NCBI GenBank assembly: GCA_964509365.1
Contig: CAZDWN010000001.1
Span: forward strand, 214,966 to 278,965
Reading direction: 5' to 3'
From: an uncultured Pseudomonadales bacterium
Lineage (GTDB): Bacteria > Patescibacteriota > Microgenomatia > UBA1400 > UBA12028
DNA: 64,000 bases
This document shows positions 2,246 through 55,354 of the stretch, one piece after another. Within the stretch, counting starts at the first letter, position 1. Each line of letters opens with the position of its first letter. Under the pieces are notes generated by a model. The model made no database searches and had not been told where the DNA came from. It worked only from the letters and a program-made list of their open reading frames with translations. Position numbers and translations under genes: made by a program.

Positions 2246-3010
<765 letters not shown>

Positions 3011-3086: not shown

Positions 3087-3255
3087 GAAAATATTGGACA
3101 TTTTCTCAAGCAAACCTAAGAACCCCACACTCCTAATGGTTCGTATGTACTCAACATTCGTACTTTGAATTCTGATCTTGAGATACTTTTCCCAGTCCAA
3201 AACTCAAACCACGTCCTATTTATTGAAGTATTCTTGAGAAAATGTCCAATTTTAT
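3087..3255. repeat. pair of 23-bp inverted repeats (3087-3110 and 3233-3255) flanking a 122-bp spacer in the divergent promoter region
   Basis: gaaaatattggacattttctcaag versus cttgagaaaatgtccaattttat; the arms are reverse complements with one mismatch. Confidence 0.6.
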
Positions 3256-3267
3256 AACTCACCATAC

Positions 3268-3372
3268 TATCTCCCATTCACTCTTCTCCCTTTTCTCTCC
3301 ACTCTTCACTCTCCACCTTTCACCCTTTCCCTTTCCTTTCGCTTCCCCCTTCCTACTTCCTACTGAAACGTC
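3268..3372 (+). repeat. strand-asymmetric polypyrimidine (C/T-only) tract
   Basis: About 100 nt that are almost exclusively C and T on the plus strand (ctcttctcccttttctctccactcttcactctccacctttcaccctttccctttcctttcgcttccccc...), about 500 nt upstream of the giant gene. Confidence 0.7.
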
Positions 3373-3750
3373 GACGAGCAAATGAGACGTGCGATCACTC
3401 TCAAACTTTTGTACTCAAAGTTTTCAAAAGAAACTTTGAAAAGTTTGACATCGCGATAACAGAAAATGGAAATTGGAAGGCGACAAATATTCATTTCCCT
3501 ATAATACGTACGCGAGGCTCGATCATTTCCATGCGGAAATGGTGCTTTTTTTCTCATTTTTTCTACACATATAAAAATCTTTCATTCGCTAGTGATCTCC
3601 GCCTGTATCCCGCAGTTTTTTCAACAAGAATTATTCCAAATTACCAGAGTTAAAGCGAAGATATTACAATTGCAGATCTGTTTATAGTGTGAAATACACT
3701 TTACAACATTTTTCAGGCTAAATGACCATATTTTTGAGCGGTATTCCCCG

Positions 3751-3779
3751 TTGACATGCCATGCAAAAAATCCCATTAT
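3751..3779 (+). promoter_or_regulatory. candidate sigma70-type promoter for the giant gene
   Basis: Perfect TTGACA (3751-3756), 17-nt spacer, then CATTAT (3774-3779), about 90 nt upstream of the ATG at 3872. Confidence 0.3.
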
Positions 3780-3871
3780 AGAAGTTGGACATTGCAACAA
3801 GAAAAAGTTAGACAGAACCAGAGAAAAAATAAAAAAACACAACGAAGAAAAAACTTACCCAAAGTGAAGTT

Positions 3872-6800
3872 ATGGATCAGCAGAGTCGAAATAGTTCCCA
3901 TCTTTCCATTCAAGAGGCTGCCCACATCCTCAAAGTTTCTGAAAAAACATTGCGACGCTGGGAGGACAAAAATATTTTGGTACCTATCCGGACTGCTGGT
4001 GGCCATCGTCGCTATACGCTTGATCAACTTCACGCATTCAAATCAAACAAGAAGAAAAATAGAGAAATTCAAGCCAGTGAAGCGATCTTTGTCCCTACAG
4101 TGGAAATTCGCCCAACTCTTATCAAGCAGGCTGTGGCTTCACCACTCCTCCATCGCCCCGCTCAAACGCGTTTCTCATTTCCAGTGAAGCGAGTGGTTAT
4201 ATTTGCTTCCTTAGTGTTGGCCCTTTTTGCCCTGAGCATGATTGCCAAGCCTATCACTAGTTCTTTGGCGTCAATCAAATTACCGACTCTACGTGGACCA
4301 CTCATTGCGACGAAGAAAACTCCTGCCAAAGCCATCACTAAAGCGTCCTCTGCTTCAGTGCTCGGCATAGCTGATGAATATATTCAGTTCACTCTCAATG
4401 TCGATACGGTTCTCAATGAGAATTTGAGAGTAGTCAAAGATGCGAGCATCGGCGGGACTCTGGGTGTCAATAGTGGTCGCATCGCGTCAGCAGCTTCCTC
4501 AGGAAGTATTTTTGATGACAATGTATCGACGTTGACGATTGGCTCATCAGGCACGGCAATTAGTATCGGCGCGACTACCGGAACGACGACAATCAACAAT
4601 CAAACAACAGCAGTCCGAGGCACTCTTACTCTTATTGGAAATCGGCTGACCTCGGCTGCTGATCTCGTCATCGATCCAGGTGGAGGCGGTGTGCTCATTG
4701 GGACAAGTACTCCTGCAAGCATCGATTCCGCCTCAGGCGATTTGTTCGTTTCTGACCAGTTTGAAGTCAAAGGTGCTTCGTATTTACCAACCATCATCAC
4801 CAATGGTGATACCATCACTGATTTCACCGGCACAGGACTCCAGGTCTCAGCTGGGATCCTCTCTACCACGCTAGGCACAAGTATCCAAAGCACTGAAATC
4901 GACAATTCAGCTATTACGAGTGACAAGCTAGCAGATGAGGCAGTGACCGAGCCAAAGCTCAATGTCACGAACGATGCAAGCAACGGATATATCCTGAGTT
5001 CTGCTGGTGATGGCAAGTTTACTTGGGTACCTCAAAATACCGCAGTGAACTTCTTTACCGATGCTGGACCAAATATCTACATCACCGACACCACCGATGA
5101 TCTCAGTCTCGGGACCACGAGCGATTTGGCCAAACTCGGAGTCAGCGGCGACAGCGACGAAATTCAGCTGTTGGCTCGTGGGAATACGACGCAGACGAGT
5201 GACATTCTATCTGTGCAAAATTCGAGTGGAACGAGCCTGTTTTCTGTGAGTGGTACCGGTGTGCTGACTGCATCGCAACTCAACTGTACGTCGTATGCAA
5301 ATGGAGGAGCGTTGACGACCAATGCATCTGGAGTGATTTCCTGTGCTGATGATGATGGTGGCGGCACCGCATCCCCATTCCAAACCACAGCTGGTGTCGC
5401 GAATCTGATTACCCCGACTGACGACGTGACAGTCGGGTCAAACACTGACTACGGTAAACTTGCAGTTGCTGGCGATAGCGATGAAGTCCAGTTCTTGGTT
5501 CACGGGAACGCCACACAAACCTCTTTCCTCGGTGTTTTCGAACAATCAACTGGCACAGATGTCTTTACAATCGCAAATAGCGGAGATCTCGTAACTGCTG
5601 GCAATTTAGCGGTCAATGGTGGAAGTATCACCACCACATCGACGACAGCAAATATCTTCAACTCGACGGTAACAACGCTCAATATCGGTGCAGCGGCAAC
5701 CAATATAAATATCGGAGTGGTCGGAGGGACAATGACCATCCCAAGTAATGTAACGATCACCGGGACGTTGACAACCGCTGCCAGTGATTTTGCTGCCGAT
5801 GGCGCAGTGACGCTCTCGCCTTCTGGCACAAATGACATCACCTTTAATCTCGATGCGAACTCAACCTTTATTCTCAATGGTGTACAGTCTGGTACTGCTT
5901 CCAATGGCTTGTGTCTCGATGGCAGCAATAACTTGATTACGTGTTCGACTGTCGGCTCGCTGACGTTGCAGTCTGCCTACAACAACGATGGCGACGGATC
6001 GGATACAGTGATTGCTCTAACTTCGGCTGATGATTCCGTGGTTATTCGAAATCCTGCTTCATCTGGAACAGATTCTGGGTACACATTCTTCATCGACCAA
6101 CTCAATACAGGAAACGTCGACGGCATTCGAGTTGATACAGCTGGTACAGGCACAGGCATCGCCGTCAACAGCTCTTCAACGGGCACACTTCTGAGTCTGG
6201 TCGCAAGCAGTATCGGGACGACGACGACAGGCATCTCAGTTCAAAACTCAGACACTGGAGTCATCACAAATGGATTGGATGTGTCCGATCCTGAGATCGT
6301 GAATGCCATTAGCCTGGGCAGCAACAGCATTTTGACGGGATCTGGCGCGGTGACTTCTGCAGAATTATTCAGACTCTCGGGGAAAGATGCTGCGCTCGTC
6401 GATACGAATGATGCAGTCGTAACTGCGATCACAGGCACAGGCGCGTTAAACACTGGAAGTATCACCAGTGGTTTTGGAAGTATTGACGTCGGCGCTGATG
6501 CAGTCGCCGCCGGGACGATCACCGTCAATGGTGACAGTATCACCGACTTCACAGGCAATGGCCTACAAGTGAGCGGAGGCAATCTCGCACTCAAGCTGCA
6601 GACTGCCACTGATGCACTCTCTTCCACTATTTCAAGTGGTTCTGGGCTAGAGACGTTTGCTGGCGGAGTCGCCATGCTCCAAGGGTGTACCGATGGCCAA
6701 ATTCTCAAATGGAACGAGACTACTGACGAGTGGGGTTGTGCAAATGACTCAGGAGCCACGAGCGCAATTATTAATGTCAAAAACAACGGCTCATCGGTAG

Positions 6801-9800
6801 GCACCAATGTCGACACCCTCAACTTCACCACGGACTTCCTCGTCGCTGAGAGTCCAAGCGGAACTGACAATATCTCAGTTGCAGATGACATTCTCAATTT
6901 TACAGAGTTGAGCGATTCTCTCGTGCTTGATGCAAATACCACCATCACCGCCGGATCTGCCTTGAGTTTAACGATTGGAAACAACGCGACGTTGACGACA
7001 ACTGGATCTGGATCAATCATCGCGACTGATCTTGTGTGCGCTGATTGCGTAGCATTAGGCAGTGAGACGACCGGAAACTATGTCGCCACAATCACTGCAG
7101 GCAACGGTCTGACCGGTGACGTCTCAAGCGAAGGGTCGACACCGACCTTGGCAGTTGGAGCTGGGAATGGCATACTTTCCAATGCAAATGACGTCGCAGT
7201 CGATCAAAGTTATGGTTTCACCTTTACTGGAAATGTTTCCTTCTCACCTTCTGGCACGAATAATCTTTCCTTCACTGGTGATGCAAACTCACAAATTAAT
7301 TTGACTGGTCTCCAAGCGACATCAGCTGTTTCCGGATTGTGTCTGGATGCATCAAATAATGTGGTGACATGTGCTGTTGGAGGTTCTATGTCGAGCTTCT
7401 CTTTGGCAGGAGATTCTGGAAGTGACACGGTGTCCAATGGCCAAACTGCCACGATTGCAGGTGGCACCAATGGGATTGACACGGTTGAATCAGGGCGAAC
7501 TGTGACCTTGAACTTGGATACGACCGAGATTACGAATGCGACATTTGGCACCGGTGCAGCTGGATTCACTTGGACCTTTGATGCTTCAGCAGGCACTGAT
7601 ACGACGATCGCATTTGGCAATAACACGCAGACATTTACGACAGGTACTGCCACATTCACCGGCAACTTGACGGCACAAGGCACGACGCTTTCCCTTGGAA
7701 ACGGTTCTGCAAGCACTATCTCTACCCCGTCCGGAAATGCGGGATTAACTATCGCACCAAATGGTACTGGAACTTTGAATCTGGCGACCACAAACACAGG
7801 AAATGTCGTCATCGGAAATGGCACGGGCAGCTTTCAATTAACCTCGAGCGGTGGACTCAATGTCTCTACTGGAGGAGCACTGACGGGAGTGGCCTCGCTT
7901 GATACGATCTCGACGTCAGCCACTGCGCTCGGATTTGCTGGGACGGGGACACTGAGTTCCGGAGCGGCCACTGCCCTCAATATTGTCCCTGGGACATCAG
8001 GCGCCTTAAATCTGGCCACAACCAACACAGGAAATGTCGTCATTGGGAACGCGACTGGGACGTTTGTCCTCAATTCAAATGGTGGTCTTAATGTGACGAG
8101 TGGAGGAGCGCTCACGGGTGTCGCCTCTCTTGATACGATCTCAACGTCAGCGACTGCGCTCGGATTTGCCGGCGCTGGCACTATTACCTCTGCAGGCGCA
8201 AATGCGCTGACTCTGGACTCCGGATCCACGGGTACGATCAATATCGGCACCGGCACAAGTGGAAAGACAATTAATGTCGGTACAAGTAATAGTAATGCGG
8301 ACACCATCAACATTGGATCTGCGCTTGATACCCTAGCCTTGGCAGGCACAACCGGTATTACGGGGACGACGACGATCACTGGCACAGCAAATATCAATTC
8401 CTCAGGAGCAGCGACAACAAATATTGGGACTGGCACTGGGAACGTCGTCATTGGGAATGGCACGGGCACGTTTGCTCTGACAAGTAATGGTGGGCTGAAT
8501 GTCTCGACCGCAGGTGTACTCTCTGGGATCACTGGATACACCCAGAGCTCAGGCGCATTCTCACTCACACTTTCGACCACAAACTCCGCACTGTTTGCAT
8601 CAACGACGAGTGGAGCTGATGCCCTAGCTATCAAGCCACAATCAGCACTGACTTCCGCAGGGTTTACTGGCACAGTCAGTACCGTTGATTTGACTGCTGC
8701 TCGCACCTACACGTTCCCAGATGCGACTGGAGACGTCTGTTTGACGAGCGGAAACTGTGCTGGAGTTGGCGGTGGATTGACTGGTTCAGGAACCACAGGC
8801 CAGATTGCATATTTCAATGGCTCGGGTTCACTCACATCTGAAGCAAGTGGATTTGCATGGGATGCTACCAACAATCGACTTGGTATTGGGACAGATACGC
8901 CGACTGGTATGCTTCACGTGACCGGAGCCGTGACTGGGAAAGCACTTACTATCTTTAATGAAACTGGAGACCAAAACATACTCGCTGCATCAGCTTCAGG
9001 CACAACGGTCGCTACTTTGGACCGCAATGGTCAGTTTATGGTCAATACAACGACGGCAAACGCAGACAAAATTGCGCTCGTTGGAAATGCGACTGGAGCA
9101 AATACGTTTACAGGATCCGTATCGGTCGCTGACCTGACTGCAGATCGCACATTTACCTTTCCAGATGCAACCGGCACCGTGTGTTTGACCAGTGGCAACT
9201 GTACTGGAGCTGGTGGCTCGATGGCAAGCTTTAATCTTGCCGGAGACACTGGCAGCGACGCAGTTGCTGACGCACAGACTGCAACAATAGCTGGTGGGAC
9301 TAATGGGATCGATACTACGGAAACAGGACGAACAGTGACATTAAATCTCGATGCGACTGAGATTAGCGGTACATCTTCTTCCGGTGCAACGACGTTTAGT
9401 GATGGCACTCAGTCGACAGTTACGTGGACGTTTAATACTTCAGGAGCAACTGATACTTCCCTCGCCTTTGCAAACAATGCGGTGACGTTGACGGCCGGAA
9501 CCACGACAATGTCTGGCAATCTGACTGTACAAGGCACTGCACTTTCACTCGGGAATGGATCGGCAAGTACCATCTCCACTCCATCTGGAAATGCTGGAAT
9601 CACCATCGCACCAAACGGCACCGGTTCGCTCAATTTAGCAACGACAAACACTGGCGCAGTAACCATCGGCAACGCGACTGGAGCTTTCCAGTTGATTTCA
9701 AATGGTGGTCTCAATGTGAGTACCGGCGGAGCTCTCACTGGAGTTGCATCGCTTGATACGATTTCCACTTCTGCCACCGCAATTGGATTCGCTGGCGTCG

Positions 9801-12800
9801 GGGTACTTTCGTCTGGAGCCGGGACAAACTTGAGTATTATTCCGGGGACAACGGGATCGCTAAACCTCGCGACGACGAATACTGGAAATGTCGTGATCGG
9901 GAATGGCACTGGCACGTTTGCCCTGACAAGTAATGGAGGGTTAAATGTCTCAACGGCAGGCGTGCTCACTGGTGTGACGAGTATTGATACAATCGGAACG
10001 ACCGCCACTGGCCTGACATTCGCCGGCTCTGGAAGCATCGTTACAACCACTTCATCAGCGTTGACGCTCGACAGCGGTACTACTGGTGCAGTCAATCTTG
10101 GCTCAGGAAACAATGCCAAGACGATCAACATCGCCACTGGGACAGCTGGCGATACGGTGAATATCGCTACAGATAACTCCATCGCTGACACCATCAACAT
10201 CGCCAGTGCCCTGGATACGACCACCATTGCCGGATCATTTAAACTCACTGGCCTATCTGCACAAACTGGCTCACAATTGTGTATTACCGGTGGGAATGTC
10301 GTCGGTACCTGTTCATCTGGTTCAGGGGTCACCGGATCAGGATTAGCAAATCAAATTACCTATTGGTCATCAGGAACAGCAGTCACAGGAAATGCAAACT
10401 TCTTGTTTAACCCATCAAATGTCAGTGGAACTACAACGTCCTCATCAGTTGTCTTGACTGACGCATCGCTTACAACGGGTACAAATCTCTACGTTTCAGG
10501 GACCAGCACACCAGTTGCGAATACAGCGACATCACAAAATGTCATCGCCGTCACATACGCACAAGTCACTGCAGCCAACACCAATGGATTTACTGGCCTT
10601 GATCTCAAGTTCACCAATGCAAGTACCATCGCTGGAAATACAGAATATGCTGCTCGCATTCAAAACCAAGCAAGTGGAAGTAGCCCCTCAGATGCAGCGA
10701 TAGCCGCACTGCTTCAGCTTGATAACGCGGATACCACCTCAGGAAATTCGATTGTCGTCACCGATGCGCTCCAAATCAGTAACTCTGGAGCAATCGCGGC
10801 TGGCGTCACCAACGGTATCGCGTTCAGATCAACCACCATCGACACCGGAATTAACTTTGTCTCCACACCGACGACCAATTACATCAGTGGCACAAACTTC
10901 ACAGTCACCGCTGCAGGTGCAGAAACGCTTGGGAGTAACTTGACTGTCAATGGAACATCTTTGTCACTTGGGAATGGATCCGCCAGTACAATCTCGACCC
11001 CATCTGGCAATGCTGGGATCACCATCGCTCCAAATGGCACAGGGACCTTGAATCTTGCGACGACCAATACCGGCGCAGTCAGCATTGGAAATGCGACGGG
11101 GTCATTTGCCTTAGCTTCAAGTGGTGGATTAAACGTCTCTACCGGCGGGGCACTCACTGGAGTCGCGAGTATCGATACGATTGGGACCTCAGCCACTGGA
11201 TTGACGTTTGCTGGAGCTGGCACAATCGTCACAAACACTTCCTCTGCTCTAACACTTGATAGCGGGACAACAGGGATTGTGAACTTAGGCACAGGAAACA
11301 ATGCAAAGACGGTTAATATTGCGACTGGTACCGCCGGAGATACCGTAAACATTGGCACTGACAATTCGATAGCTGATACCATAAACATCGCCAGTGCCCT
11401 GGATACGACCACCATTGCCGGATTATTTAAACTCACTGGCCTCTCTGCACAGACAGGATCACAACTCTGTATCACTGCTGGAAATGTCATCGGTACGTGT
11501 GCCTCTGGGTCTGGAGTCACTGGATCAGGTGTCGCCAACCAAATCGCTTACTGGAGTGGGACGAATGCACTCACCGGAAATGCAAATCTCACATTTGATC
11601 CGACCGCGACCACTGGAAATGCGCTCGCACTTGCCGATACGTCACTCACCACTGGAAAGCTCACATCCTTTACGGGTACGAGTACACCAGTTGCAAACAC
11701 CGCGACCACTCAAAACTTATTTGCAGTCACGTATGCTCAGGGTACGGCGGCAAACACCAATGGCTTCGTTGGACTTGGCGTGAACTTTACAAATAGTCCA
11801 ACTATTGCTGGGAATACTGAGTATGCGGCTCAAATTCAAAATCAAGTGACGACGAATACGACTGACAATGCAGTCGCTGCACTCCTCCGACTTGATAACG
11901 CTGACACGAGTGGCACGGGCTCGACAGTCGTCACCGATGCATTGCAAATCAGTAACTCGGGAGCAATCGCCGCTGGCATCACCAACGGAATTGCGTTCAG
12001 ATCAACGACAATCGACACTGGGATCAACTTTGTCTCAACCCCGACGACCAATTACATCAGTGGCACAAACTTCACAGTCACCGCTGCAGGTGCAGCCACG
12101 CTTGCAAGCAATTTGACTGTGAATGGGACGACGCTCTCACTTGGCAACGGTTCTGCCAGCACAATTAGTACGCCATCTGGAAATGCTGGTATTAGTATTA
12201 CTCCAAACGGATCTGGGGCTCTCGCATTAGGGTCAGGAAATACAGGAAATTTCACCCTCGGCAACTCGACAGGTACTGGCGCGATCACCACCAGTGACTG
12301 GGTAATTGGCACCACTGGGAATATGACTGGCATCGGCAATATCGTCGCTGATGGAAATATCTCATTTACTCCAAGTGGAACATCAGACATCACGTTCAAT
12401 ACTGCTCCAGGTTCAGGCGCGAACTTGACGATCACTGGACTGACGAGTGGCACAGCATCAAGCGGCATTTGTCTTGACGGTTCAAATAATGTCATTACAT
12501 GTAATGCGGCAACGACCGTAAACTTACAAGATGCCTATGACCATGACACTGATACCGGAGACACGCTCATTACATTCTCTGCCGCCGATGACTCTCTGAT
12601 CTTTCGAAATCCTGCATCATCAGGAACCGATAGTACGTTCCTCTTAAACCTTGATCAACTTGCTTCAGGGACGCAAGATGTCTTGACGATCTCACAGGCC
12701 GGTACGGGAAATGCGTTCGCCATCACGACGACCAATGCAGGCACGACGCCGGCTGCCATCAAGATCAGTAACAGTGCAGGGACCATCACCGATGCAATTG

Positions 12801-15800
12801 ATTTGACTGATGCCACCGGTATCACCAATGCGATCAATGTCGCAGGAAACAAGATCAAAGGGACGACTGGATCAATCGACTACACCAACTTTGATGTCGA
12901 TGGCGCGACTGGGAATATCACCGTTGCCGCGGGTGTTGGACTCGATTCGAATGCCGCAGGAATCTTGGCACTTGGAAATACGACTGCGACTACGGTAAGC
13001 ATTGGTTCGACAGCTGCAACGACTTTAAATCTTGGTGCAAGTGGATCCTTAACGCGAGCCATCAATATCGGTACTGGAACTGGAGCGGACACAATCAACA
13101 TCGGTACTGGTGGAACAGCCGCAGATGCCATCACCATCGGAAATAATGCTTCAAGTACATCCCTGGCATTCACTTCAGGGACTGGGGTACAGACATTTAC
13201 CAGTTCAGCGACGAGTGGAAATGCATTTGTATATGCCGCAAACGCGTTGACGTCTGGAAATGAACTCAACCTTTCATCAACATCCACGACGTTGACTTCA
13301 GGAAAATTGGCTTCCTTTGACTGGAGCCCAGGATCTGCGACACTCGCGACTGGAGATTTGTTCAACATCAACATTGGCACTAACGGTACCACCACTGGAA
13401 ACCTCTTCTCTGTCAGTGATACCGCCAGTAATCTCTTCACAGTGTCTGAGTCTGGCATCACTGCAAACTTGCCTACGGCCTTCACTGCTGCTGGCGACGT
13501 GACGATGGCCTATGACCTGCAGTTTACCAATCAAACTTCAAGCTTTATCAAGAGTAAAGCTCCGTTGTATCTTGACGTCGGTGAGACATTCGAAAACAAT
13601 GATTTGACGCTTCGCACTTACAATTTCGGTCGAGTCATCGCTGATGTTTCAAACAATGGTGGCGTCTTAATCTCAAGTAACCCAGCAGCGTCCACTCAAA
13701 ATGGATTGCTGCAAGTCAATGGTGCCGCGACTGGAAAAGCACTCGCAATCTTTAATGAAACTGGCGATCAAAAAATCTTGAGTGCTTCTGCCTCTGGGAC
13801 GACAGTTGCGACATTGGATCGAGCTGGCCAATTTACGGTCAACACGACGACTGCAAATGCCGACAAACTTGCACTCAAAGGCAATGCGACTGGCTCGAAC
13901 TCATTTACGGGGACCTTGAGTACAGCCGACTTGACTGTCGGAGATCAGACCTTCAATCTTCCTGATCTAGCTGCCGCCACTTCTGCCACGATCTGTGTCT
14001 CGACCGGAAACTGTGCTGGCTTGGGTACGGGAGTGACGCAATCAGGCACGAATGCGAGCGGCCAAATCGCGTACTTTACAAGCACAAACAATATCACTTC
14101 AGATGCAACCTATCTCTTGAGTCCAAATGCAACCACGGGAACTGCACTGTCACTGACTGACACTGCATTGACAACTGGGAAGCTCACCTCTTTCTCTGGT
14201 ACGAGTACTCCAGTCGCAAACACGGCCACGACGCAGAACTTGTTTGCAGTCACCTACGCACAAGGCACCGCTGCCAACACCAATGGCTTCGTCGGCCTCG
14301 GAGTGAACTTTACAAATAGTCCGACCATCGCTGGAAATACAGAGTATGCCGCTCAAATTCAAAACCAAGTGACCACCAACACAACAGACAACGCAGTCGC
14401 TGCTCTCCTCCGACTTGATAATGCGGACACGAGTGGCACGGGTTCCACAGTCGTCACTGATGCATTGCAGATCAGTAACTCGGGAGCCATTGCAGCTGGT
14501 GTCACCAACGGTATTGCCTTCAGATCAACCACCATCGACACTGGTATCAACTTTGTCTCCACTCCGACAACCAACTACATCAGTGGCACGAACTTCAACG
14601 TCGCTGCAACCGGTGCGATCACGGTCGCCGGTGGAGTTGGTCTTGATACCAATGCATCTGGAGTCTTGGCTCTAGGCAACACGACAGCGACCACGGTCAA
14701 CATCGGCAATACTGCTGCGACCACGCTCGCGCTCGGAGCTGGAGGAGCACTCACTCGCACGATCAATATCGGTACTGGTACTGGCGTGGATACGATTCAT
14801 ATTGGTGATGGAGGGACTGGAGCTGATGTCATCACAATTGGGAGTACAAATGCCGGTAATGTCTCCATTAAGAGCGCAGCAGCCCTAAATCTCACCGGTG
14901 GAACGAGCTCGTTGATTGATTTCCCGAACTTTGATGTCAGCACAACCGGCCTTGTCACTTTCCTCGGTGGCCTGACTCCAGACATCACCACCCAGTCAAA
15001 TAATTCCTTGACCATCACGCCTGCTGGTACTGGCGACTTAGTGTTCGCTGGTGATGCTGATACCACGTTTGAAAATAATTTATCAAATACCTCAGCATTC
15101 AATATCAATGGGACGACTGCATCATCAAGAACAGGCGTCGATATGGTGACAATCTCGCAAGCAAGTGGCGCAGGCTCATCAAATTCAAACTTGCTGCAAC
15201 TTACAAATAATGACGCTGATTCCACTTCAGCTGCACTTGCAATTAGCCAAGTTGGAAATGGCACCGGCATCGATATTTCAGGAGTGACTTCAGGATCCGG
15301 AATCACGCTGGCGCTAGCTCTCTCGGCTGGGGGATCAGGAATCGCATTCCCAGTTGGATATGGCATTAGTGATGCATACGGAATTATCTTTAATGGCAGC
15401 GGTACTGTCACTGCAGGACTATCAGGCTCGATGATTGAGGCGTCACCAACTCGTATCTATCAAGGAGCTGGGACTATCAGTGAAACTGGCAACTTCTTGA
15501 AACTAGCAAGGACCGAAACTCAAAATACAGGCGTCGGGACTATCGCGATCACCGGTGACGTTGCTTCACTGTCGTCTACGTGTACGATCTCAGGCGGAGT
15601 GTGTACCGATAACTCAAATATTTTGTCATTGGCACAAAACTTTGCATCTGCCACGGGTGCCGTACTCGATATTACGAACGCAGGTACCGGAAAAGGAACA
15701 TTGCTCACATCCTCCTCCACTGGAGATTTGATGGAACTTGATTCTTCGGGAGCAGTGACGACGACCAATGGCTTGGTCATCGCAGCCACGAATGGCTCTG

Positions 15801-18800
15801 GAGTCATCACGAATGCACTCAATGTATCTGATGCTGAGATAGTCAACGCCATCAACGTCGGCGCCAATGATATTACGGGTACGACCTATACACAGTACGC
15901 AACCGCTGGCGATCTGACGTTGGATTCTTCAAACGATATCAATCTTGATGCAGATGGTGCCGATGTGATTTTGAAAGACAATGGTGTCGTCTACGGCAAT
16001 CTTTCAAATTCAGCCGGTGCACTTTCAATCACTTCAAATACCACGAATGCTGCCAGTCTAGATACGGGCGCTGCTGGAGCGGTCAACATTGGAAACGCAA
16101 ATGCTTCTTCAGTAAACATTGGCGCTACTGCTGCCACGACCATCAGTATTGGGAATGGTGGAGCGTTGACACGAGCCATCAATATCGGTACAGGGACTGG
16201 TGCAGATACGATCAATATTGGTACTGGTGGAACCACCGCCGATGCCATCACTATCGGCAACAATGCTTCGAGTACTTCCCTCTCCTTCACCTCAGGCACC
16301 GGAGCTCAGACATTTACCAGTTCAGCAACCAGTGGAAATGCTTTTGTATATGCCGCAAACGCACTGACGTCTGGGAATGCCTTGAGTCTCTCATCGACGG
16401 CGACGACGTTAACCTCAGGGAAACTCGCCTCCTTTGACTGGAGTCCAGGGTCAGCGACACTCGCATCTGGTGACTTGTTCAACATCAATATTGGCACCAA
16501 TGGCACCACTACAGGAAGCTTGTTCTCTGTCAGTGATGCTGGGAGCAACCTCTTTACTGTCTCTGAGACTGGAGTTACTTCAAATCTCCCAACCTCATTC
16601 ACGTCAGCTGGAGATGTCTCGATGGCATATGACTTGCAATTTACGAATCAAACCTCAAGCTTTATCAAGAGCAAAGCACCACTCTACTTGGAAGCCGGAG
16701 AATCATTCGAAAGTAACGATTTGACGTTGCGTACGTATAACTCAGGTCGAGTCGTCCTGGACAATATCTCTGGAGGATACGCCCAGCTGAACTTCTTGGG
16801 CAAATCAACAACTGGTGATCCGGCAACTTGTTTACCAGGTGATATTTACTTCAACAGTACTGATGCGACCGTCAAAGCGTGTACAGCAAGCAATACGTGG
16901 GAGACGCTTGATGGCGGTGGAACTGTAACTGGATCAGGAGCAACAAATCAAATGGCATACTGGACGTCTGCTTCGAACTTATCTACATCTGGGAACTTCA
17001 CGTTTAATCCAAGCGCGACGAGCACTACTCAAAATGCAATTAGTAACAACGCATTGACGACTACCGGTCAGTTACTCACCTTGAGTTCGTCAGCTACTGG
17101 ATTGACCAGCGCAGGTTCAAACTTGGGATCGCTGTTTGATGTCACTGAGTCAGGAGTCATGACTGGATTCACTGGTTCACTTGCCAGCATCAATGCTTCT
17201 TCAATCAATAACGTTGGGAACACTGGAAATGCACTTAATATCAACTTAGCTGGCGCTGCTAATATCATGAAGGCAGTGAATATCACCGATAACTCGACCG
17301 GCGCACTGACGAACGGAGCGTTCTATATGAACATGACCGGCAACCACACCGGTAGTGCGTTTGCGATCGATGATGTGACGACAGCAGGAAACGTCATGAG
17401 CTTGCGTGACAATGCGCTGACTACTGGGACCGCGTTCCTTGCCTCACACACGACGTCAGTCATCGCCGCTGGTGGATCTTTGATTCGTGCCACATCAAGT
17501 TCAAACGACACCTCGACGACGACCGGTACACTGCTTGATCTCCAGTCATCTGGATCAACCGCTGGCACGATCGCCACGATTACGAATAACACAGCTTCCT
17601 TTACTGGTATCTCTGAGAGCATTTCAAACACAGGATTGACGACGGGAACTGGGCTCAACATTGCTGGTGGTTCCACCATGGCCGCGGGAGGAAAACTCAT
17701 TAATCTTGATATGAGTACATCCACAGCCGGCAATGGCCTCAACATCTCGTCTACCGGCGTCTACGCTGGGACAGGACTTGAGACATTGAGCTCGACCGGA
17801 TTGACCACTGGGACGGTACTGTCAGTTGCTTCGTCAGGAAACAGTCAAACAAGCGGCAAATTAATAAACGTCGCACAAACTGGCGTCACCACCGGATTCA
17901 CTGGCAACTTACTCAATCTTTCCTCGACGAGTACGACTGGAGCTGCGACATTTATCAACCTAGCAGCAGACGCCTCGACAGTCGGAATCGGACAAAAAAT
18001 CTCAATGAATGCACTGACCACTGGTACTGAACTCAGTTTGACGTCTACGTCAACCGCGATCACTTCCGGTAACATGTTTAGCTCTTCACTGACCGGAGCA
18101 TCTGCATTCACTGGTAACCTCAATTACTTTGACTGGACATCATCCGCAGCCACCGCCACTGGCGACCTGATGCGACTGCACATTGGTCCAAACAATAACG
18201 TGGGCAACTTGTTCAACGTCGTTGACGACACGACCAGTCTCTTCTCCATCTCAGAAGCAGCGGTCACTTCAAATCTCCCGACTTCATTCACTGCAGCTGG
18301 TGATGTCTCGATGGCGTATGACTTGCTCTTCACTAACCAAACATCCAGCTACATCAAGAGCAACGGACCACTTACGATCCAATCTGGTGAGAGTTTTGAG
18401 AACAACAACTTGACCCTGCAAACCTTCGGAACTGGAGCGATCATCCCAAGTGGAAAGTTTGCATTTGGATCACAACTCACGCTGACTGCAAACAGCACGA
18501 CGCCATCGGTGACTGCCGGCAACACGTACATCACTGCAAACACCTCGGGAACATTGATCACAAACTTTACGAATGGGACTCCAGGTCAAGTCATCTTCGT
18601 GAAGATTAATGACGTCAACACAGACTTTGACTGTACCAGTTCAAACATCGTCTGTGGGACCACTGACCTCACCACACCGACCACCGGAGATCAACTCGAG
18701 TTTATTTACGATGGAACGAACTGGAACTTACTCGCCTGGATGTTACCAGCAGTCAACAATGCAGATACCACATTTAGTGGCGGTGTCGACGTGGCTGAGT

Positions 18801-20320
18801 TCTACCCAAGTAGCGAGTCACTGCAGGCCGGAGATGTGATCAGTATCGATGCATCCACACCAGTGACAATCAAGAAAGGCGCTCAAGCAGATGGCCAGAA
18901 AGTGATCGGTATCATCTCTACTCAACCTGGTATGACTTTGGGAACTCAGACTCCAAACTCCTACAAAGTCGCACTTGCTGGTCGAGTCCCAGTCACTCTT
19001 GATCCAAATTCTCAAGCAATTCAGCCTGGTGACTTCCTCGCCGCATCTTCAGTCTCTGGAAAAGCAATCAAAGCCACGAGTGGCTACATCATCGGTCGAG
19101 CACTTGAGACATGGACACCAGGCAATGGGACAAATTCTGTCACCGTCTTTGTTGAGACTCACTACATCGATCCAATGATGGCATTGACGACGACTGGGAA
19201 TATGGCGATTGCCGAAGTCGTCAATGGCCAGATGCCATCCACTTTCTCGCTTGCGAATGCAAGTTCGTTCACCGACCGCATTGGGATCTTTACCAAGGCA
19301 ATCATCGCCAATTTGACTGCTGGTCGAATCAATTCGACTGAAGTGAATACGAGTCGCCTCTCGATTGATGGAAAGAGCGTCCAACAGTTGATTAGTGAAG
19401 CAGTGCAAAATGCATCTGTAAGTGGCACGTATGATGGAAACGCGACTATCTCTGGTCAGTTAGTTGCGCAAACGGCATCTGTCTCCGGTGATGCAACCGT
19501 GTCCGGCACTCTCTATGCCGATCGCATCGCCGCATTGGATCCAATCAAATCAGCACTGGACCTCAACACCGCGTCGATGAGTGCCCTCCTCTCTTCTTGG
19601 TCGAACTGGAGTGCGTCAGCCTCCGCCAATGTGATCACTGCAGATGCTGTCTTTGCAAATGAGTATTTGAATGTCCAAGGGAGTGCCAGTATTACTGATG
19701 CTGCGATCAACCACAGTTTGATTGTCGGCGGCTCACTTGCACTAGATCACAACTCACTGACATTGATTTCGGACAGTGAAGATACTCTGTACATCCAGGC
19801 GACGACATCTGGCAAACTCAACTTACTCGCAGGAACGATGACGTTGTCGACCGAAGGAGGTCTCTTCGTCAACACCAACGCAACTTTTGCCAAAGATGTG
19901 ACAGTCCAAGGGACACTTGAAGCTCGCACACTCGGAATTGCGACAGAGAGTGGCAAACTCGCGATTGCCAATAGTGAGCACTCTGAGGTCGCGAGTATCG
20001 ACGCCTCAGGATCAGCAACCTTCGCCAAACTCGCCTTGACGACAAGTGCTACCAGCTCAGCAGTGGTAAAACTTGACGCAACCGTCGGAAAAGCCACGTT
20101 GAAGAATGGTCAGACATCAGTGACGATTTATACCAACCAGATCTCAGACAAGTCTTTGATCTACATCACTCCGACGAGTAGTACAGGCAACAAAGTGCCA
20201 TTCATCCAGAGTAAGTTCTCCTATGACCCACAAAATCCAAGTATCGTCGGTAGCTTCACCGTCGCGATTGATGCCCCAGTGGCAAACGATATCTCCCTCA
20301 ACTGGTGGATCATCAACTAA
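3872..20320 (+). CDS. giant (5,482 aa) repetitive Thr/Gly/Ser/Asn-rich surface protein with N-terminal excisionase/MerR-type HTH and single TM helix
   Basis: Single uninterrupted ORF of 16,449 nt. aa 10-58 match the HTH_17/excisionase pattern (LSIQEAAHILKVSEKTLRRWEDKNILVPIRTAGGHRRYTLDQLHAF). One TM helix (VVIFASLVLALFALSMIA). Then several families of long internal repeats (LSLGNGSASTISTPSGNAG units; about 200-aa GSGxANQIxYW...TNYISGTNFTVTAAG units; about 190-aa NIGTGTGADTINIGTGG...FIKSKAPLYL units), paired Cys motifs (CLTSGNCxG, CLDGSNNxITC) and a non-repetitive C-terminal region. Antisense ORFs in the track are Pro/Val-rich mirror artefacts. Confidence 0.85.
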   Translation: MDQQSRNSSHLSIQEAAHILKVSEKTLRRWEDKNILVPIRTAGGHRRYTLDQLHAFKSNKKKNREIQASEAIFVPTVEIRPTLIKQAVASPLLHRPAQTRFSFPVKRVVIFASLVLALFALSMIAKPITSSLASIKLPTLRGPLIATKKTPAKAITKASSASVLGIADEYIQFTLNVDTVLNENLRVVKDASIGGTLGVNSGRIASAASSGSIFDDNVSTLTIGSSGTAISIGATTGTTTINNQTTAVRGTLTLIGNRLTSAADLVIDPGGGGVLIGTSTPASIDSASGDLFVSDQFEVKGASYLPTIITNGDTITDFTGTGLQVSAGILSTTLGTSIQSTEIDNSAITSDKLADEAVTEPKLNVTNDASNGYILSSAGDGKFTWVPQNTAVNFFTDAGPNIYITDTTDDLSLGTTSDLAKLGVSGDSDEIQLLARGNTTQTSDILSVQNSSGTSLFSVSGTGVLTASQLNCTSYANGGALTTNASGVISCADDDGGGTASPFQTTAGVANLITPTDDVTVGSNTDYGKLAVAGDSDEVQFLVHGNATQTSFLGVFEQSTGTDVFTIANSGDLVTAGNLAVNGGSITTTSTTANIFNSTVTTLNIGAAATNINIGVVGGTMTIPSNVTITGTLTTAASDFAADGAVTLSPSGTNDITFNLDANSTFILNGVQSGTASNGLCLDGSNNLITCSTVGSLTLQSAYNNDGDGSDTVIALTSADDSVVIRNPASSGTDSGYTFFIDQLNTGNVDGIRVDTAGTGTGIAVNSSSTGTLLSLVASSIGTTTTGISVQNSDTGVITNGLDVSDPEIVNAISLGSNSILTGSGAVTSAELFRLSGKDAALVDTNDAVVTAITGTGALNTGSITSGFGSIDVGADAVAAGTITVNGDSITDFTGNGLQVSGGNLALKLQTATDALSSTISSGSGLETFAGGVAMLQGCTDGQILKWNETTDEWGCANDSGATSAIINVKNNGSSVGTNVDTLNFTTDFLVAESPSGTDNISVADDILNFTELSDSLVLDANTTITAGSALSLTIGNNATLTTTGSGSIIATDLVCADCVALGSETTGNYVATITAGNGLTGDVSSEGSTPTLAVGAGNGILSNANDVAVDQSYGFTFTGNVSFSPSGTNNLSFTGDANSQINLTGLQATSAVSGLCLDASNNVVTCAVGGSMSSFSLAGDSGSDTVSNGQTATIAGGTNGIDTVESGRTVTLNLDTTEITNATFGTGAAGFTWTFDASAGTDTTIAFGNNTQTFTTGTATFTGNLTAQGTTLSLGNGSASTISTPSGNAGLTIAPNGTGTLNLATTNTGNVVIGNGTGSFQLTSSGGLNVSTGGALTGVASLDTISTSATALGFAGTGTLSSGAATALNIVPGTSGALNLATTNTGNVVIGNATGTFVLNSNGGLNVTSGGALTGVASLDTISTSATALGFAGAGTITSAGANALTLDSGSTGTINIGTGTSGKTINVGTSNSNADTINIGSALDTLALAGTTGITGTTTITGTANINSSGAATTNIGTGTGNVVIGNGTGTFALTSNGGLNVSTAGVLSGITGYTQSSGAFSLTLSTTNSALFASTTSGADALAIKPQSALTSAGFTGTVSTVDLTAARTYTFPDATGDVCLTSGNCAGVGGGLTGSGTTGQIAYFNGSGSLTSEASGFAWDATNNRLGIGTDTPTGMLHVTGAVTGKALTIFNETGDQNILAASASGTTVATLDRNGQFMVNTTTANADKIALVGNATGANTFTGSVSVADLTADRTFTFPDATGTVCLTSGNCTGAGGSMASFNLAGDTGSDAVADAQTATIAGGTNGIDTTETGRTVTLNLDATEISGTSSSGATTFSDGTQSTVTWTFNTSGATDTSLAFANNAVTLTAGTTTMSGNLTVQGTALSLGNGSASTISTPSGNAGITIAPNGTGSLNLATTNTGAVTIGNATGAFQLISNGGLNVSTGGALTGVASLDTISTSATAIGFAGVGVLSSGAGTNLSIIPGTTGSLNLATTNTGNVVIGNGTGTFALTSNGGLNVSTAGVLTGVTSIDTIGTTATGLTFAGSGSIVTTTSSALTLDSGTTGAVNLGSGNNAKTINIATGTAGDTVNIATDNSIADTINIASALDTTTIAGSFKLTGLSAQTGSQLCITGGNVVGTCSSGSGVTGSGLANQITYWSSGTAVTGNANFLFNPSNVSGTTTSSSVVLTDASLTTGTNLYVSGTSTPVANTATSQNVIAVTYAQVTAANTNGFTGLDLKFTNASTIAGNTEYAARIQNQASGSSPSDAAIAALLQLDNADTTSGNSIVVTDALQISNSGAIAAGVTNGIAFRSTTIDTGINFVSTPTTNYISGTNFTVTAAGAETLGSNLTVNGTSLSLGNGSASTISTPSGNAGITIAPNGTGTLNLATTNTGAVSIGNATGSFALASSGGLNVSTGGALTGVASIDTIGTSATGLTFAGAGTIVTNTSSALTLDSGTTGIVNLGTGNNAKTVNIATGTAGDTVNIGTDNSIADTINIASALDTTTIAGLFKLTGLSAQTGSQLCITAGNVIGTCASGSGVTGSGVANQIAYWSGTNALTGNANLTFDPTATTGNALALADTSLTTGKLTSFTGTSTPVANTATTQNLFAVTYAQGTAANTNGFVGLGVNFTNSPTIAGNTEYAAQIQNQVTTNTTDNAVAALLRLDNADTSGTGSTVVTDALQISNSGAIAAGITNGIAFRSTTIDTGINFVSTPTTNYISGTNFTVTAAGAATLASNLTVNGTTLSLGNGSASTISTPSGNAGISITPNGSGALALGSGNTGNFTLGNSTGTGAITTSDWVIGTTGNMTGIGNIVADGNISFTPSGTSDITFNTAPGSGANLTITGLTSGTASSGICLDGSNNVITCNAATTVNLQDAYDHDTDTGDTLITFSAADDSLIFRNPASSGTDSTFLLNLDQLASGTQDVLTISQAGTGNAFAITTTNAGTTPAAIKISNSAGTITDAIDLTDATGITNAINVAGNKIKGTTGSIDYTNFDVDGATGNITVAAGVGLDSNAAGILALGNTTATTVSIGSTAATTLNLGASGSLTRAINIGTGTGADTINIGTGGTAADAITIGNNASSTSLAFTSGTGVQTFTSSATSGNAFVYAANALTSGNELNLSSTSTTLTSGKLASFDWSPGSATLATGDLFNINIGTNGTTTGNLFSVSDTASNLFTVSESGITANLPTAFTAAGDVTMAYDLQFTNQTSSFIKSKAPLYLDVGETFENNDLTLRTYNFGRVIADVSNNGGVLISSNPAASTQNGLLQVNGAATGKALAIFNETGDQKILSASASGTTVATLDRAGQFTVNTTTANADKLALKGNATGSNSFTGTLSTADLTVGDQTFNLPDLAAATSATICVSTGNCAGLGTGVTQSGTNASGQIAYFTSTNNITSDATYLLSPNATTGTALSLTDTALTTGKLTSFSGTSTPVANTATTQNLFAVTYAQGTAANTNGFVGLGVNFTNSPTIAGNTEYAAQIQNQVTTNTTDNAVAALLRLDNADTSGTGSTVVTDALQISNSGAIAAGVTNGIAFRSTTIDTGINFVSTPTTNYISGTNFNVAATGAITVAGGVGLDTNASGVLALGNTTATTVNIGNTAATTLALGAGGALTRTINIGTGTGVDTIHIGDGGTGADVITIGSTNAGNVSIKSAAALNLTGGTSSLIDFPNFDVSTTGLVTFLGGLTPDITTQSNNSLTITPAGTGDLVFAGDADTTFENNLSNTSAFNINGTTASSRTGVDMVTISQASGAGSSNSNLLQLTNNDADSTSAALAISQVGNGTGIDISGVTSGSGITLALALSAGGSGIAFPVGYGISDAYGIIFNGSGTVTAGLSGSMIEASPTRIYQGAGTISETGNFLKLARTETQNTGVGTIAITGDVASLSSTCTISGGVCTDNSNILSLAQNFASATGAVLDITNAGTGKGTLLTSSSTGDLMELDSSGAVTTTNGLVIAATNGSGVITNALNVSDAEIVNAINVGANDITGTTYTQYATAGDLTLDSSNDINLDADGADVILKDNGVVYGNLSNSAGALSITSNTTNAASLDTGAAGAVNIGNANASSVNIGATAATTISIGNGGALTRAINIGTGTGADTINIGTGGTTADAITIGNNASSTSLSFTSGTGAQTFTSSATSGNAFVYAANALTSGNALSLSSTATTLTSGKLASFDWSPGSATLASGDLFNINIGTNGTTTGSLFSVSDAGSNLFTVSETGVTSNLPTSFTSAGDVSMAYDLQFTNQTSSFIKSKAPLYLEAGESFESNDLTLRTYNSGRVVLDNISGGYAQLNFLGKSTTGDPATCLPGDIYFNSTDATVKACTASNTWETLDGGGTVTGSGATNQMAYWTSASNLSTSGNFTFNPSATSTTQNAISNNALTTTGQLLTLSSSATGLTSAGSNLGSLFDVTESGVMTGFTGSLASINASSINNVGNTGNALNINLAGAANIMKAVNITDNSTGALTNGAFYMNMTGNHTGSAFAIDDVTTAGNVMSLRDNALTTGTAFLASHTTSVIAAGGSLIRATSSSNDTSTTTGTLLDLQSSGSTAGTIATITNNTASFTGISESISNTGLTTGTGLNIAGGSTMAAGGKLINLDMSTSTAGNGLNISSTGVYAGTGLETLSSTGLTTGTVLSVASSGNSQTSGKLINVAQTGVTTGFTGNLLNLSSTSTTGAATFINLAADASTVGIGQKISMNALTTGTELSLTSTSTAITSGNMFSSSLTGASAFTGNLNYFDWTSSAATATGDLMRLHIGPNNNVGNLFNVVDDTTSLFSISEAAVTSNLPTSFTAAGDVSMAYDLLFTNQTSSYIKSNGPLTIQSGESFENNNLTLQTFGTGAIIPSGKFAFGSQLTLTANSTTPSVTAGNTYITANTSGTLITNFTNGTPGQVIFVKINDVNTDFDCTSSNIVCGTTDLTTPTTGDQLEFIYDGTNWNLLAWMLPAVNNADTTFSGGVDVAEFYPSSESLQAGDVISIDASTPVTIKKGAQADGQKVIGIISTQPGMTLGTQTPNSYKVALAGRVPVTLDPNSQAIQPGDFLAASSVSGKAIKATSGYIIGRALETWTPGNGTNSVTVFVETHYIDPMMALTTTGNMAIAEVVNGQMPSTFSLANASSFTDRIGIFTKAIIANLTAGRINSTEVNTSRLSIDGKSVQQLISEAVQNASVSGTYDGNATISGQLVAQTASVSGDATVSGTLYADRIAALDPIKSALDLNTASMSALLSSWSNWSASASANVITADAVFANEYLNVQGSASITDAAINHSLIVGGSLALDHNSLTLISDSEDTLYIQATTSGKLNLLAGTMTLSTEGGLFVNTNATFAKDVTVQGTLEARTLGIATESGKLAIANSEHSEVASIDASGSATFAKLALTTSATSSAVVKLDATVGKATLKNGQTSVTIYTNQISDKSLIYITPTSSTGNKVPFIQSKFSYDPQNPSIVGSFTVAIDAPVANDISLNWWIIN

Positions 20321-23511: not shown

Positions 23512-23532
23512 GACGAGCTTTCATTCTACAGG

Positions 23533-24783: not shown

Positions 24784-24824
24784 GATTCCCAGATAGTATC
24801 AAGGAAGTGACGATACATCCAGGT

Positions 24825-25568: not shown

Positions 25569-25668
25569 TTTTTCATTGTACTGCCAGCTCGCATATACGT
25601 CTATTCTTTGGGTACAAAAGACGGTGGAAAAGAGGCATACTAACTTGGAGAAATACTCTCAATTTTTT

Positions 25669-31773: not shown

Positions 31774-31774
31774 T

Positions 31775-36319: not shown

Positions 36320-36320
36320 T

Positions 36321-43728: not shown

Positions 43729-43736
43729 TGAGCGTG

Positions 43737-43807: not shown

Positions 43808-43840
43808 TTTTTCTACCCAAAGTATTGTATCATTAAATCT

Positions 43841-44203: not shown

Positions 44204-44221
44204 TACAATAGTCTCCTAGCC

Positions 44222-44292: not shown

Positions 44293-44298
44293 CAGTGA

Positions 44299-55326: not shown

Positions 55327-55354
55327 AGGGCAGTATGTCTAACGATGATTCTGT

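Follow-up and report, generated by a model that had tools for sequence, protein, structure and literature searches.

The 64,000-nucleotide stretch of contig CAZDWN010000001.1 (assembly GCA_964509365.1, positions 214,966 to 278,965 of the forward strand), hereafter the window, was analysed for one giant gene and its surroundings. The gene is a single open reading frame (ORF) at positions 3872 to 20320 of the plus strand with zero internal stops, encodes 5,482 amino acids (aa) and takes up 25.7% of the window. A first reading made from the letters alone, hereafter the sequence-only reading, had described it as one uninterrupted frame for a fibrous surface protein dominated by T, G, S, A and N; both the frame and the composition (T 16.8, G 12.4, A 11.6, S 11.4 and N 8.4%, together 60.7%) were confirmed. 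The MerR-type helix-turn-helix (HTH), the transmembrane (TM) anchor, the domain resembling gp12 of phage phi29, the divergent partner gene and the operator were absent from that reading. The features of the locus are as follows.

2246 to 3004, minus strand: partner gene of 252 aa, with a signal peptide, a beta-tulip domain and two C-terminal TM helices (BLASTP, synteny)
3094 to 3110 and 3233 to 3249: distal motif pair adjoining the partner gene, a perfect 17-nucleotide (nt) inverted repeat (TTGGACATTTTCTCAAG / CTTGAGAAAATGTCCAA)
3751 to 3779, plus strand: sigma-70-like promoter of the giant gene, TTGACA-17-CATTAT (10 of 12 consensus matches)
3785 to 3814, plus strand: operator-like element TTGGACA-N16-TTAGACA with direct half-sites, 5 nt past the -10 hexamer
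3872 to 20320, plus strand: giant gene, ATG start, 5,482 codons, in the order HTH, TM helix, mosaic fibre, beta-tulip, stalk, terminal domain
3905 to 4048, plus strand: MerR/excisionase-type winged HTH (aa 12-59; Pfam), predicted to be cytoplasmic
4190 to 4246, plus strand: sole TM-like hydrophobic helix (aa ~107-125; Kyte-Doolittle), a putative signal-anchor
4379 to 4921, plus strand: conserved membrane-proximal head of the ectodomain (aa 170-350; alignment A2, in which homologues span 65-99% of aa 1-350)
5789 to 18445, plus strand: mosaic body, with 13 of the 14 Cys pairs located up to its end (self-BLAST, Cys statistics)
18446 to 18763, plus strand: small beta-rich domain with a Cys pair (aa 4859-4964), directly before a putative cleavage site (moderate model confidence)
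18788 to 19171, plus strand: phi29-gp12-type (Peptidase_G2-like) beta-tulip, a predicted intramolecular-chaperone domain (aa 4973-5100), from D4973 of DVAEFY (profile, model, fold)
19172 to 20056, plus strand: stalk (aa 5101-5395) with a conserved VSGTLYADRI string, poorly modelled as a monomer
20057 to 20317, plus strand: conserved terminal beta domain (aa 5396-5482), ...SLIYITPTS...LNWWIIN (model confidence; ending common to complete relatives)

The homologues place the protein in a conserved family of giant single-pass membrane proteins of Microgenomates, the Woesebacteria-like bacteria belonging to the Candidate Phyla Radiation (CPR). The family scan, run with the N-terminal 350 aa against one genome per species, recovered 212 related loci, with Candidatus Woesebacteria at the top of the named ones, followed by Levyibacteria, Amesbacteria, Chisholmbacteria and 'Microgenomatus'; a profile of the C-terminal cassette reached a phage protein of known structure as described below. 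Judged by these relatives, the window itself would derive from an ultra-small CPR bacterium of the Microgenomates class. The HTH-headed ORFs of the related loci had lengths between 2,200 and more than 3,700 aa, the majority stopping only at the edge of the fetched flank or at the contig end, and nearly all relatives carried the TM helix at aa 90-200. Full-length family members measured about 2,200-6,200 aa, so that the size of the giant protein is normal for the family. The exhaustive protein search returned 1,211 representatives with E<=1e-3, of which 135 reach <=1e-10 and 21 reach <=1e-30, and proteins of 3,679-6,172 aa are among them. Complete relatives close with F[DN]WW[IV]V, and in many of them DxAE[FY] lies 320-566 aa before the end; the relatives P0102 and P0103 have both ends in common with the giant protein and read DFAELF/DFAEYF at the position of the cleavage motif. 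In the databases the family goes under the names 'hypothetical protein' and 'excisionase family DNA binding protein'.

The N-terminal HTH scored above the Pfam gathering scores for PF00376 (45.1 against 28.2 bits), PF13411 (MerR_1; 37.8 against 21.6 bits) and PF12728 (HTH_17; 35.9 against 27 bits), and the nearest NCBIfam models were BldC, HspR and 'excise', all under their cut-offs. The recognition helix KTLRRWE and the wing RTxGxxRRY were near-invariant over about 78 loci, while the remaining protein diverged to below 30% identity. The canonical MerR coiled-coil dimerisation helix and effector domain were not found after the HTH in the Pfam and NCBIfam scans; a basic linker follows and then the TM helix, the only segment of the entire protein with a mean Kyte-Doolittle value above 1.8. 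The first 106 residues are net basic (19 K+R against 9 D+E) and the ectodomain is low in charge and slightly acidic. An N-in/C-out topology is suggested because no signal peptide precedes the folded HTH, and also by this overall charge. A DNA-binding domain with at least one TM region in one polypeptide defines a transmembrane transcription regulator (TTR), of which the single-pass form is the commonest (PMC10269533). The HTH and TM helix of the giant protein fall under this definition, DNA binding being predicted, and its head is thus by definition a single-pass TTR. It is not a canonical MerR regulator, as it lacks an effector or dimerisation domain and its operator does not lie within a long spacer.

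The promoter region of the giant gene was found to hold a DNA element which follows the HTH across the family. The TTGGACA-N16-TTAGACA pair is unique in the window, where 0.03 were expected, and there is no second paired operator anywhere in it. The 867-bp spacer between the partner and the giant gene holds three of the seven TTGGACAT sites of the window, with about 0.04 expected. Over 42 loci the kilobase before the gene contained 1.78 TTGGACA per kb against 0.15 per kb elsewhere, the latter being about random, which amounts to a 12-fold excess; 38 of the 42 loci have the motif; a second motif cluster was present at -750 to -860 in four of the related loci (L003, L023, L027 and L043). Most relatives have the palindrome TTGGACA-N13-TGTCCAA instead of the direct half-sites. 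This palindrome was counted 33 times in 1.19 Mb (81 loci) against 0.8 expected, nearly always 50-450 nt upstream of the HTH-headed gene, and inspection by eye in about 40 species gave the common layout -35, 17-19 nt, -10, 3-5 nt, T(T/A)(G/A)GACA-N13-TGTC(C/T)AA. It was also present upstream of genes in which only the HTH stays recognisably conserved and the ectodomain has diverged beyond recognition. The relation is one of co-conservation and not of covariation. The assignment of this candidate operator to the protein's own HTH is well motivated but not demonstrated.

Two other parts of the same spacer were noted. A block at 3480-3700 (plus strand) is conserved with the related loci L002-L004 and L009, has a hairpin (3522-3543) with a T-run after it, and contains the invariant strings TGCGGAAAT, CTCCGC and TTACCAGAG; the Rfam scan of the 867-bp spacer gave no known RNA at E<=1, and the block may represent a small RNA, a leader or additional regulatory sites. 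A nearly pure C/T tract of about 100 nt at 3270-3370 (plus strand) is not obviously conserved in related loci.

The ectodomain is a mosaic of about 4,850 aa, low in charge, rich in T, G, S, A and N, and built of shuffled modules. Tandem Repeats Finder detected zero tandem arrays in the gene. Tiled self-BLAST of the protein charted modules of 100-400 aa in 2-4 copies each, which are 45-87% identical in aa and 67-83% identical in DNA; no exact DNA repeat is longer than 55 nt and every repeat offset is in frame. The module types are distributed as follows.

Type A: aa 640-830, 1116-1190, 2823-3002
Type B: aa 1258-1560, 1875-2130, 2349-2530, 2740-2825
Type C: aa 2122-2374, 2519-2740, 3361-3609
Type D: aa 3002-3258, 4063-4297, 4683-4858
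Type E: aa 1566-1781, 3275-3385

The sequence-only reading had seen regularly spaced Cys pairs and taken them as a sign of beta-helical or beta-solenoid modules stapled by disulphides. The pairing was upheld: all 28 Cys fall into 14 tight pairs, 3-19 residues apart, against a mean of 3.3 and a maximum of 11 tight pairs in 2,000 trials of random placement, and the motifs quoted (CLDGSNNLITC, CLTSGNCAGVGG and CITGGNVVGTC) are present. The regular spacing was not, as 98-584 aa lie between pairs, and the pairs recur along with particular module types. The hint at N-glycosylation fell away, since the 134 N-x-S/T sequons stand at chance level against 128 +/- 9 in composition-matched shuffles (z = 0.6) and are uninformative on glycosylation. 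Pfam gave zero matches for aa 60-5482, and PHROGs none for the body (aa 126-4858) or for the remainder past the HTH. Homologues of the central tile were found in many CPR proteins, alongside Peptidase_G2 (PF11962), K1-lyase_C (PF24146), Peptidase_S74 (PF13884), Beta_helix/NosD or a MerR HTH, and one distant homologue of the body modules carried PF13229. The shuffling of modules is, by analogy, the pattern typical of phage receptor-binding proteins. The small domain at aa 4859-4964, which ends the ectodomain before the putative cleavage site, is conserved in P0018, P0104, P0119, P0131, P0185 and L001 and would be the distal tip if cleavage occurs.

The last ~620 aa of the protein recur at the ends of otherwise differing CPR proteins, and this cassette is linked to phage fibres. 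Its profile matched Protein Data Bank (PDB) entry 3gqh, the C-terminal fragment of gp12, the pre-neck appendage (tailspike) protein of phi29, from chain residue 1 (E 0.0026). In the alignment DFAEYF...IGVISETAGFVLGES of the fragment pairs with DVAEFY...IGIISTQPGMTLGTQ of the giant protein, the Asp lying at aa 4973; the solved cleaved fragment begins with DFAEYF, and the giant protein thus has D-x-A-E at the same boundary. The D, A and E of DxAE were invariant in the tighter alignment A4. AlphaFold gave predicted local distance difference test (pLDDT) values of 80-95 for the beta-tulip (aa ~4970-5100) and 82-94 for the terminal domain (last ~80 aa). Foldseek against PDB placed the beta-tulip with phage cement/decoration proteins and the K1-lyase C-terminal domain (best E 1.4e-4), and the fold search of the viral structure set BFVD returned 'Preneck appendage protein' models (E 1.2e-10, template modelling score 0.64, root-mean-square deviation 3.3 A). 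BLASTP with the beta-tulip reached P0052 (E 2e-26) and P0080 (E 2e-14), whose aligned stretches pass PF11962 with 26.9 and 30.6 bits against a cut-off of 25. On this sequence and model evidence the C-terminal domain is a divergent, non-terminal relative of the gp12/Peptidase_G2 auto-chaperone. The viral scan, seeded with A4, A1 being too diverse, found 103 viral loci that encode the beta-tulip domain, the matches beginning at the Asp.

The composition of the cassette in other family members provides the strongest argument on its function. Peptidase_S74 (PF13884) is absent from the giant protein at the Pfam gathering score. In the relatives P0212 and P0237, which retain both the HTH-TM head and the stalk-tail end, this other intramolecular chaperone of phages (52.6 and 54.7 bits, cut-off 22) occupies the slot of the beta-tulip. 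Because two unrelated chaperone modules occupy the same position, the slot would serve chaperone-assisted oligomerisation, probably with self-cleavage. The extracellular fibrous protein of an episymbiont-like organism proposed by the sequence-only reading accords with the closest loci, which are from Woesebacteria/Microgenomates, and an elongated oligomeric surface fibre fits because the C-terminal domain is a phage-fibre-type chaperone.

The divergent gene encodes a membrane-anchored paralogue of this beta-tulip. The partner domain aligned with aa 5011-5100 of the giant protein by BLASTP (32% identity over 98 aa, E 8e-7), lacks the DxAE motif and showed weak Pfam resemblance to the XM1 minor capsid protein and Phage_cement_2. 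Homologues of the partner occupy the same divergent position in 75 of 81 loci, with iPGM beyond them in 45; their median length is 258 aa and 66 of the 75 have three hydrophobic segments. As N-to-C export would bring the C-termini of the giant protein out last, beside the membrane, the partner could nucleate or dock its C-terminal chaperone domains, a role suggested by this placement.

Taken as a whole, the locus is read as encoding a trimeric, chaperone-folded, phage-like surface fibre with a type II membrane anchor, whose cytoplasmic HTH autoregulates the locus, and this reading is considered probable by a modest measure. Its parts differ in strength: the domain architecture, based on profiles and models, is close to certain; trimerisation and chaperone function of the C-terminal domain are probable by analogy with phage proteins; autoregulation by the HTH stands about evenly for and against; and host adhesion by the fibre is plausible. 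The HTH would remain in the cytoplasm, with the TM helix as signal-anchor and the remainder exported from N to C. Three chains would then be registered and folded from C to N, starting at the chaperone domain, into an intertwined trimer, as in phage tailspikes and tail fibres, and the membrane-anchored partner beta-tulip may nucleate or dock this folding. The chain may cleave itself before D4973, like gp12, baring the Cys-stapled domain (aa 4859-4964) as tip. Tail fibre protein gp34 of phage T4 has 1,289 aa for roughly 70 nm. Scaling such phage fibres to the length of the ectodomain gives, as a rough inference, a few hundred nm, comparable to a CPR cell, and a fibre of possibly this length would contact other cells or surfaces. 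The HTHs grouped at the fibre base would bind the TTGGACA-type operator past their own -10 hexamer as well as the sites by the partner gene, and such binding would repress or tune the divergent promoter pair, autoregulating a costly locus. The HTH would be translated minutes before the 16-kb message is complete and could thus act in cis on its own promoter.

Several observations weigh against this reading. For the body, the AlphaFold model of aa 2820-3400 (53-sequence alignment) had a mean pLDDT of 59, was mostly of low confidence and was confident only at aa ~3109-3269; it gave no significant fold match in PDB, the best being a phage triple-stranded beta-helix fibre at E 0.8. The weak top matches of this central tile were intertwined trimeric phage fibres, none of them significant, and the Pfam scan gave no Beta_helix match in the giant protein. 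A trimeric triple-beta-helix body is therefore not demonstrated, the model being of low confidence and lacking a significant match, and the beta-helical or solenoid modules of the sequence-only reading stay putative. For the cassette, neither the giant protein nor its close relatives P0102 and P0104 reached PF11962 (no match at E<=0.1). The domain is terminal in phages, with 115-136 aa from the Asp to the stop in 37 viral ORFs, against 510 aa from D4973 to the end here, so that its role may differ and cleavage may not occur. The relatives P0108 and P0155 lack DxAE, their beta-tulip variant reading 'NAFTGSHYAW...' instead, and the putative self-cleavage may be lost or replaced in this part of the family. 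For the topology, the flanks of the TM helix are balanced in charge with three K/R on either side, and the orientation is therefore deduced from a folded N-terminal domain without a leader, together with the overall charge. For the regulation, covariation between HTH and half-site was uninformative, as both sides are nearly invariant. The layout of MerR activators, with the palindrome within an over-long spacer of 19-20 bp, was not found either, the spacer here being 17 nt with the operator 5 nt past the -10 hexamer, and the operator could be bound by a different regulator. Trimerisation, cleavage, DNA binding and surface display of the giant protein were all deduced indirectly.

The alternative which survives best concerns the HTH, which may be non-regulatory: a cytoplasmic plug or anchor, either a nucleoid tether like RacA or a device fixing the topology, with a separate soluble regulator binding the operator. 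The HTH does have weak NCBIfam likeness to the chromosome-anchoring RacA (E 9e-4), the zero covariation with the half-site agrees with it, and so does an operator placement unlike classical MerR promoters. The operator, on the other side, tracks the HTH head across loci with sequence-unrelated ectodomains, the random density of the motif elsewhere makes it promoter-specific, and the near-invariant recognition helix argues for sequence-specific binding over a passive plug; this alternative is considered unlikely. Somewhat less likely still is a structural envelope or coat protein, S-layer-like or a spacer resembling a glycocalyx brush, in place of an adhesin. It would explain the single copy at a fixed chromosomal spot adjoining iPGM in 45 loci, like a housekeeping envelope gene, along with the low-complexity, low-charge composition and the lack of a recognisable lectin or receptor-binding Pfam domain in the giant protein. 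Module shuffling, rapid divergence and interchangeable phage-type chaperone cassettes bring it closer to receptor-binding fibres than to lattice proteins; Pfam detected no SLH or S-layer families, and the relative P0237 carries the carbohydrate-binding module CBM_4_9.

The remaining two alternatives are very improbable. An origin as the tail-fibre gene of a prophage or tailocin, or as a phage remnant of recent acquisition, in place of a cellular gene, would account for a C-terminal chaperone domain widespread in viral contigs and for body modules that co-occur with phage-type domains, but the synteny with iPGM and the partner gene is kept over dozens of species, an N-terminal HTH with TM anchor is not a phage-fibre feature, the GC content of the gene is close to that of the surrounding DNA, and its neighbours are housekeeping and surface genes, phage structural genes being absent. 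That the frame is an assembly artefact from mis-joined repeats, or a decaying pseudogene, is suggested by an orthologue (L001) split by an apparent 1-nt frameshift and by the many related contigs that end within this hard-to-assemble gene, but the 16.4 kb are stop-free, independent full-length relatives of 3.7-6.2 thousand aa have both ends in common, and repeats that are 67-83% identical in DNA, exact over at most 55 nt and all in frame make collapse unlikely; the gene is regarded as real on these grounds, and only long reads could exclude collapse.

Other identities were rejected during the analysis. A sortase-anchored LPXTG adhesin was discarded as LP.[TSA]G occurs nowhere in the protein and its C-terminus reads ...DISLNWWIIN. 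Trimeric autotransporter, RTX and Bap-type adhesins were dropped since aa 60-5482 have no Pfam match and the sole hydrophobic helix is N-terminal, and a prophage tail fibre or polymorphic toxin was rejected in view of the genomic context and the protein termini.

Comparison with known systems was carried out for each part of the protein. The HTH was closest in NCBIfam to the minimal MerR-like DNA binders HspR, BldC and excisionases, below every cut-off, and differs from them in being membrane-tethered with no coiled-coil or effector domain after it. The 7-nt half-site inverted repeat over the promoter or transcription start resembles HspR-type repression (HAIR, dnaK promoters); the operator sequence differs from HAIR. 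The ToxR, TcpP and CadC class likewise has an N-terminal cytoplasmic DNA-binding domain, a single TM helix and an extracytoplasmic part; its members have mostly OmpR-type or other HTHs and small periplasmic sensors, whereas the giant protein joins a MerR-type HTH to a fibre of about 5,350 aa. The text of the TTR survey mentions neither MerR nor Patescibacteria (PMC10269533).

For the C-terminal end the nearest system is D4 of phi29 gp12 (PDB 3gqh; MEROPS G2 / PF11962), which has D-x-A-E-[FY]-[FY] followed by IG[IV]IS...G..LG and a beta-tulip fold after a long fibrous region, as in the giant protein. D4 is a tandem beta-tulip auto-chaperone needed for trimerisation, the beta-tulip is the fold of decoration proteins, and D4 homologues are reported in 'some bacterial adhesion proteins' (bioRxiv 10.1101/216911); D4 is cleaved off after folding (PMC3357383). 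Unlike gp12, the giant protein is cellular, membrane-anchored and about six times longer, with no enzymatic beta-helix domain detected, and has 510 aa from the Asp against ~120-165 in phages. Endosialidase-type S74 fibres are comparable through the S74 domain of P0212 and P0237, which the giant protein lacks. Among known proteins the eukaryotic MyRF comes nearest, as it joins a DNA-binding domain and a TM helix to a chaperone domain of phage origin that trimerises and cleaves itself (PMC8326128). Its domain order and topology differ: the chaperone of the giant protein lies at the far extracellular end, so cleavage there could not free the HTH, unlike in MyRF, and the DNA-binding domains are unrelated (Ndt80-like in MyRF, MerR-like here).

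Cell-encoded, phage-like fibres are also present in Bdellovibrio (Bd2133), a bacterium living on other bacteria; the Bd2133 fibre was among the non-significant fold matches of the central tile (E 6.9), and no significant similarity was seen. To our knowledge the Bdellovibrio fibres are far shorter than the giant protein and have no HTH-TM head. The giant proteins of Omnitrophota are similarly very large, surface-associated and found in ultra-small host-dependent bacteria; they differ in having many TM regions and SecA-DEAD domains, and the preprint text contains no helix-turn-helix or autochaperone (bioRxiv 10.1101/2023.11.21.568195). In the open-access literature searched, no description of a MerR-HTH-TM-giant-fibre protein in CPR was found. 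The giant protein combines two known kinds of protein, a giant surface fibre and a transmembrane transcription regulator.

A further-reaching view, held tentatively and judged rather improbable, is that the family consists of attachment-sensing, membrane-tethered transcription factors in which a cell-scale fibre reports its assembly or host engagement to DNA. Clustering, pulling or proteolytic release could then alter occupancy of the TTGGACA operator; alternatively, the nascent HTH could clamp its own promoter and tether the locus to the translocon during the 16-kb reading. If attachment sensing is true, it would be a bacterial counterpart of Notch/MyRF-type signalling made from phage tail-fibre parts.

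Little is known of the way in which CPR/Patescibacteria find, hold and sense their hosts, and no member of the Microgenomates is known to be in culture. The locus offers a conserved, single-copy and easily recognised candidate for host interaction, and its product would be the largest surface structure the cell can make. The fibre would follow phage tail-fibre logic, with a dedicated membrane partner and a physical join to a DNA-binding domain that has an identifiable candidate operator. The transmembrane transcription regulators would gain a 'sensor' of 5,000 aa, and the union of a phage intramolecular-chaperone domain with a putative membrane transcription factor, previously of eukaryotic MyRF only, would extend to bacteria. 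Annotation rules for this gene, which often breaks assemblies, can also be drawn from its HTH head, its operator and its F[DN]WW[IV]V tail.

Some minor observations were made on the related loci. The L001 orthologue, from a Joint Genome Institute metagenome, is present as two ORFs (532 and 2,867 aa) with the apparent 1-nt frameshift at 11500-11720, one frame ending in ...TAPFL* and the next reading ...SVDESANTVRVGEG; the split may stem from a sequencing error or a programmed shift, or may mark a pseudogene. Many of the L002-L081 contigs stop inside the HTH-headed giant gene, and the family appears to break short-read assemblies. Several TPA bins under the title 'uncultured Gammaproteobacteria/Pseudomonadales' have an iPGM-partner-giant locus of the Woesebacteria type, and their taxonomic label looks wrong.

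The neighbours of the giant gene in the window are cellular genes, including iPGM, Obg, Rho, an M23 peptidase, a histidine kinase, a sortase and three large LamG/DUF2341 proteins. An intrinsic terminator was looked for 3' of the giant gene and not found. Convergent with its 3' end, at 20411-25568 on the minus strand, lie a DUF6541-like membrane protein of 550 aa and a 516-aa ORF, which share an overlap of about 100 nt, together with a protein resembling sugar C-methyltransferases (Methyltransf_14/13) and a GT2 glycosyltransferase; these genes look like a glycan-synthesis cluster; tblastn gave no homologues of these genes in the fetched related loci, so no link to the fibre is shown. The window has two tRNA-Ala genes and zero rRNA; the pair (anticodons CGC and GGC, 43736-44293) is divergent, about 415 nt apart and directly upstream of obg. 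The minus strand at 54010-59937 encodes a sortase-domain protein (438 aa) adjoining a 900-aa DUF11/DUF7601/DUF7619 protein and a 627-aa protein without Pfam match, likely a sortase-dependent surface or pilus locus. The plus strand at 25549-40967 has three successive large ORFs of 2,074, 1,526 and 1,548 aa, all of which have DUF2341 at the N-terminus and carry 5-6 LamG/ConA-like domains (Laminin_G_3 with E down to 1e-139), and two of the three also match Clostridium neurotoxin receptor-binding N-domains. These ORFs may form a second surface-recognition battery, and a DUF2341 gene 3' of the giant gene was also observed in L001 and several other related loci.

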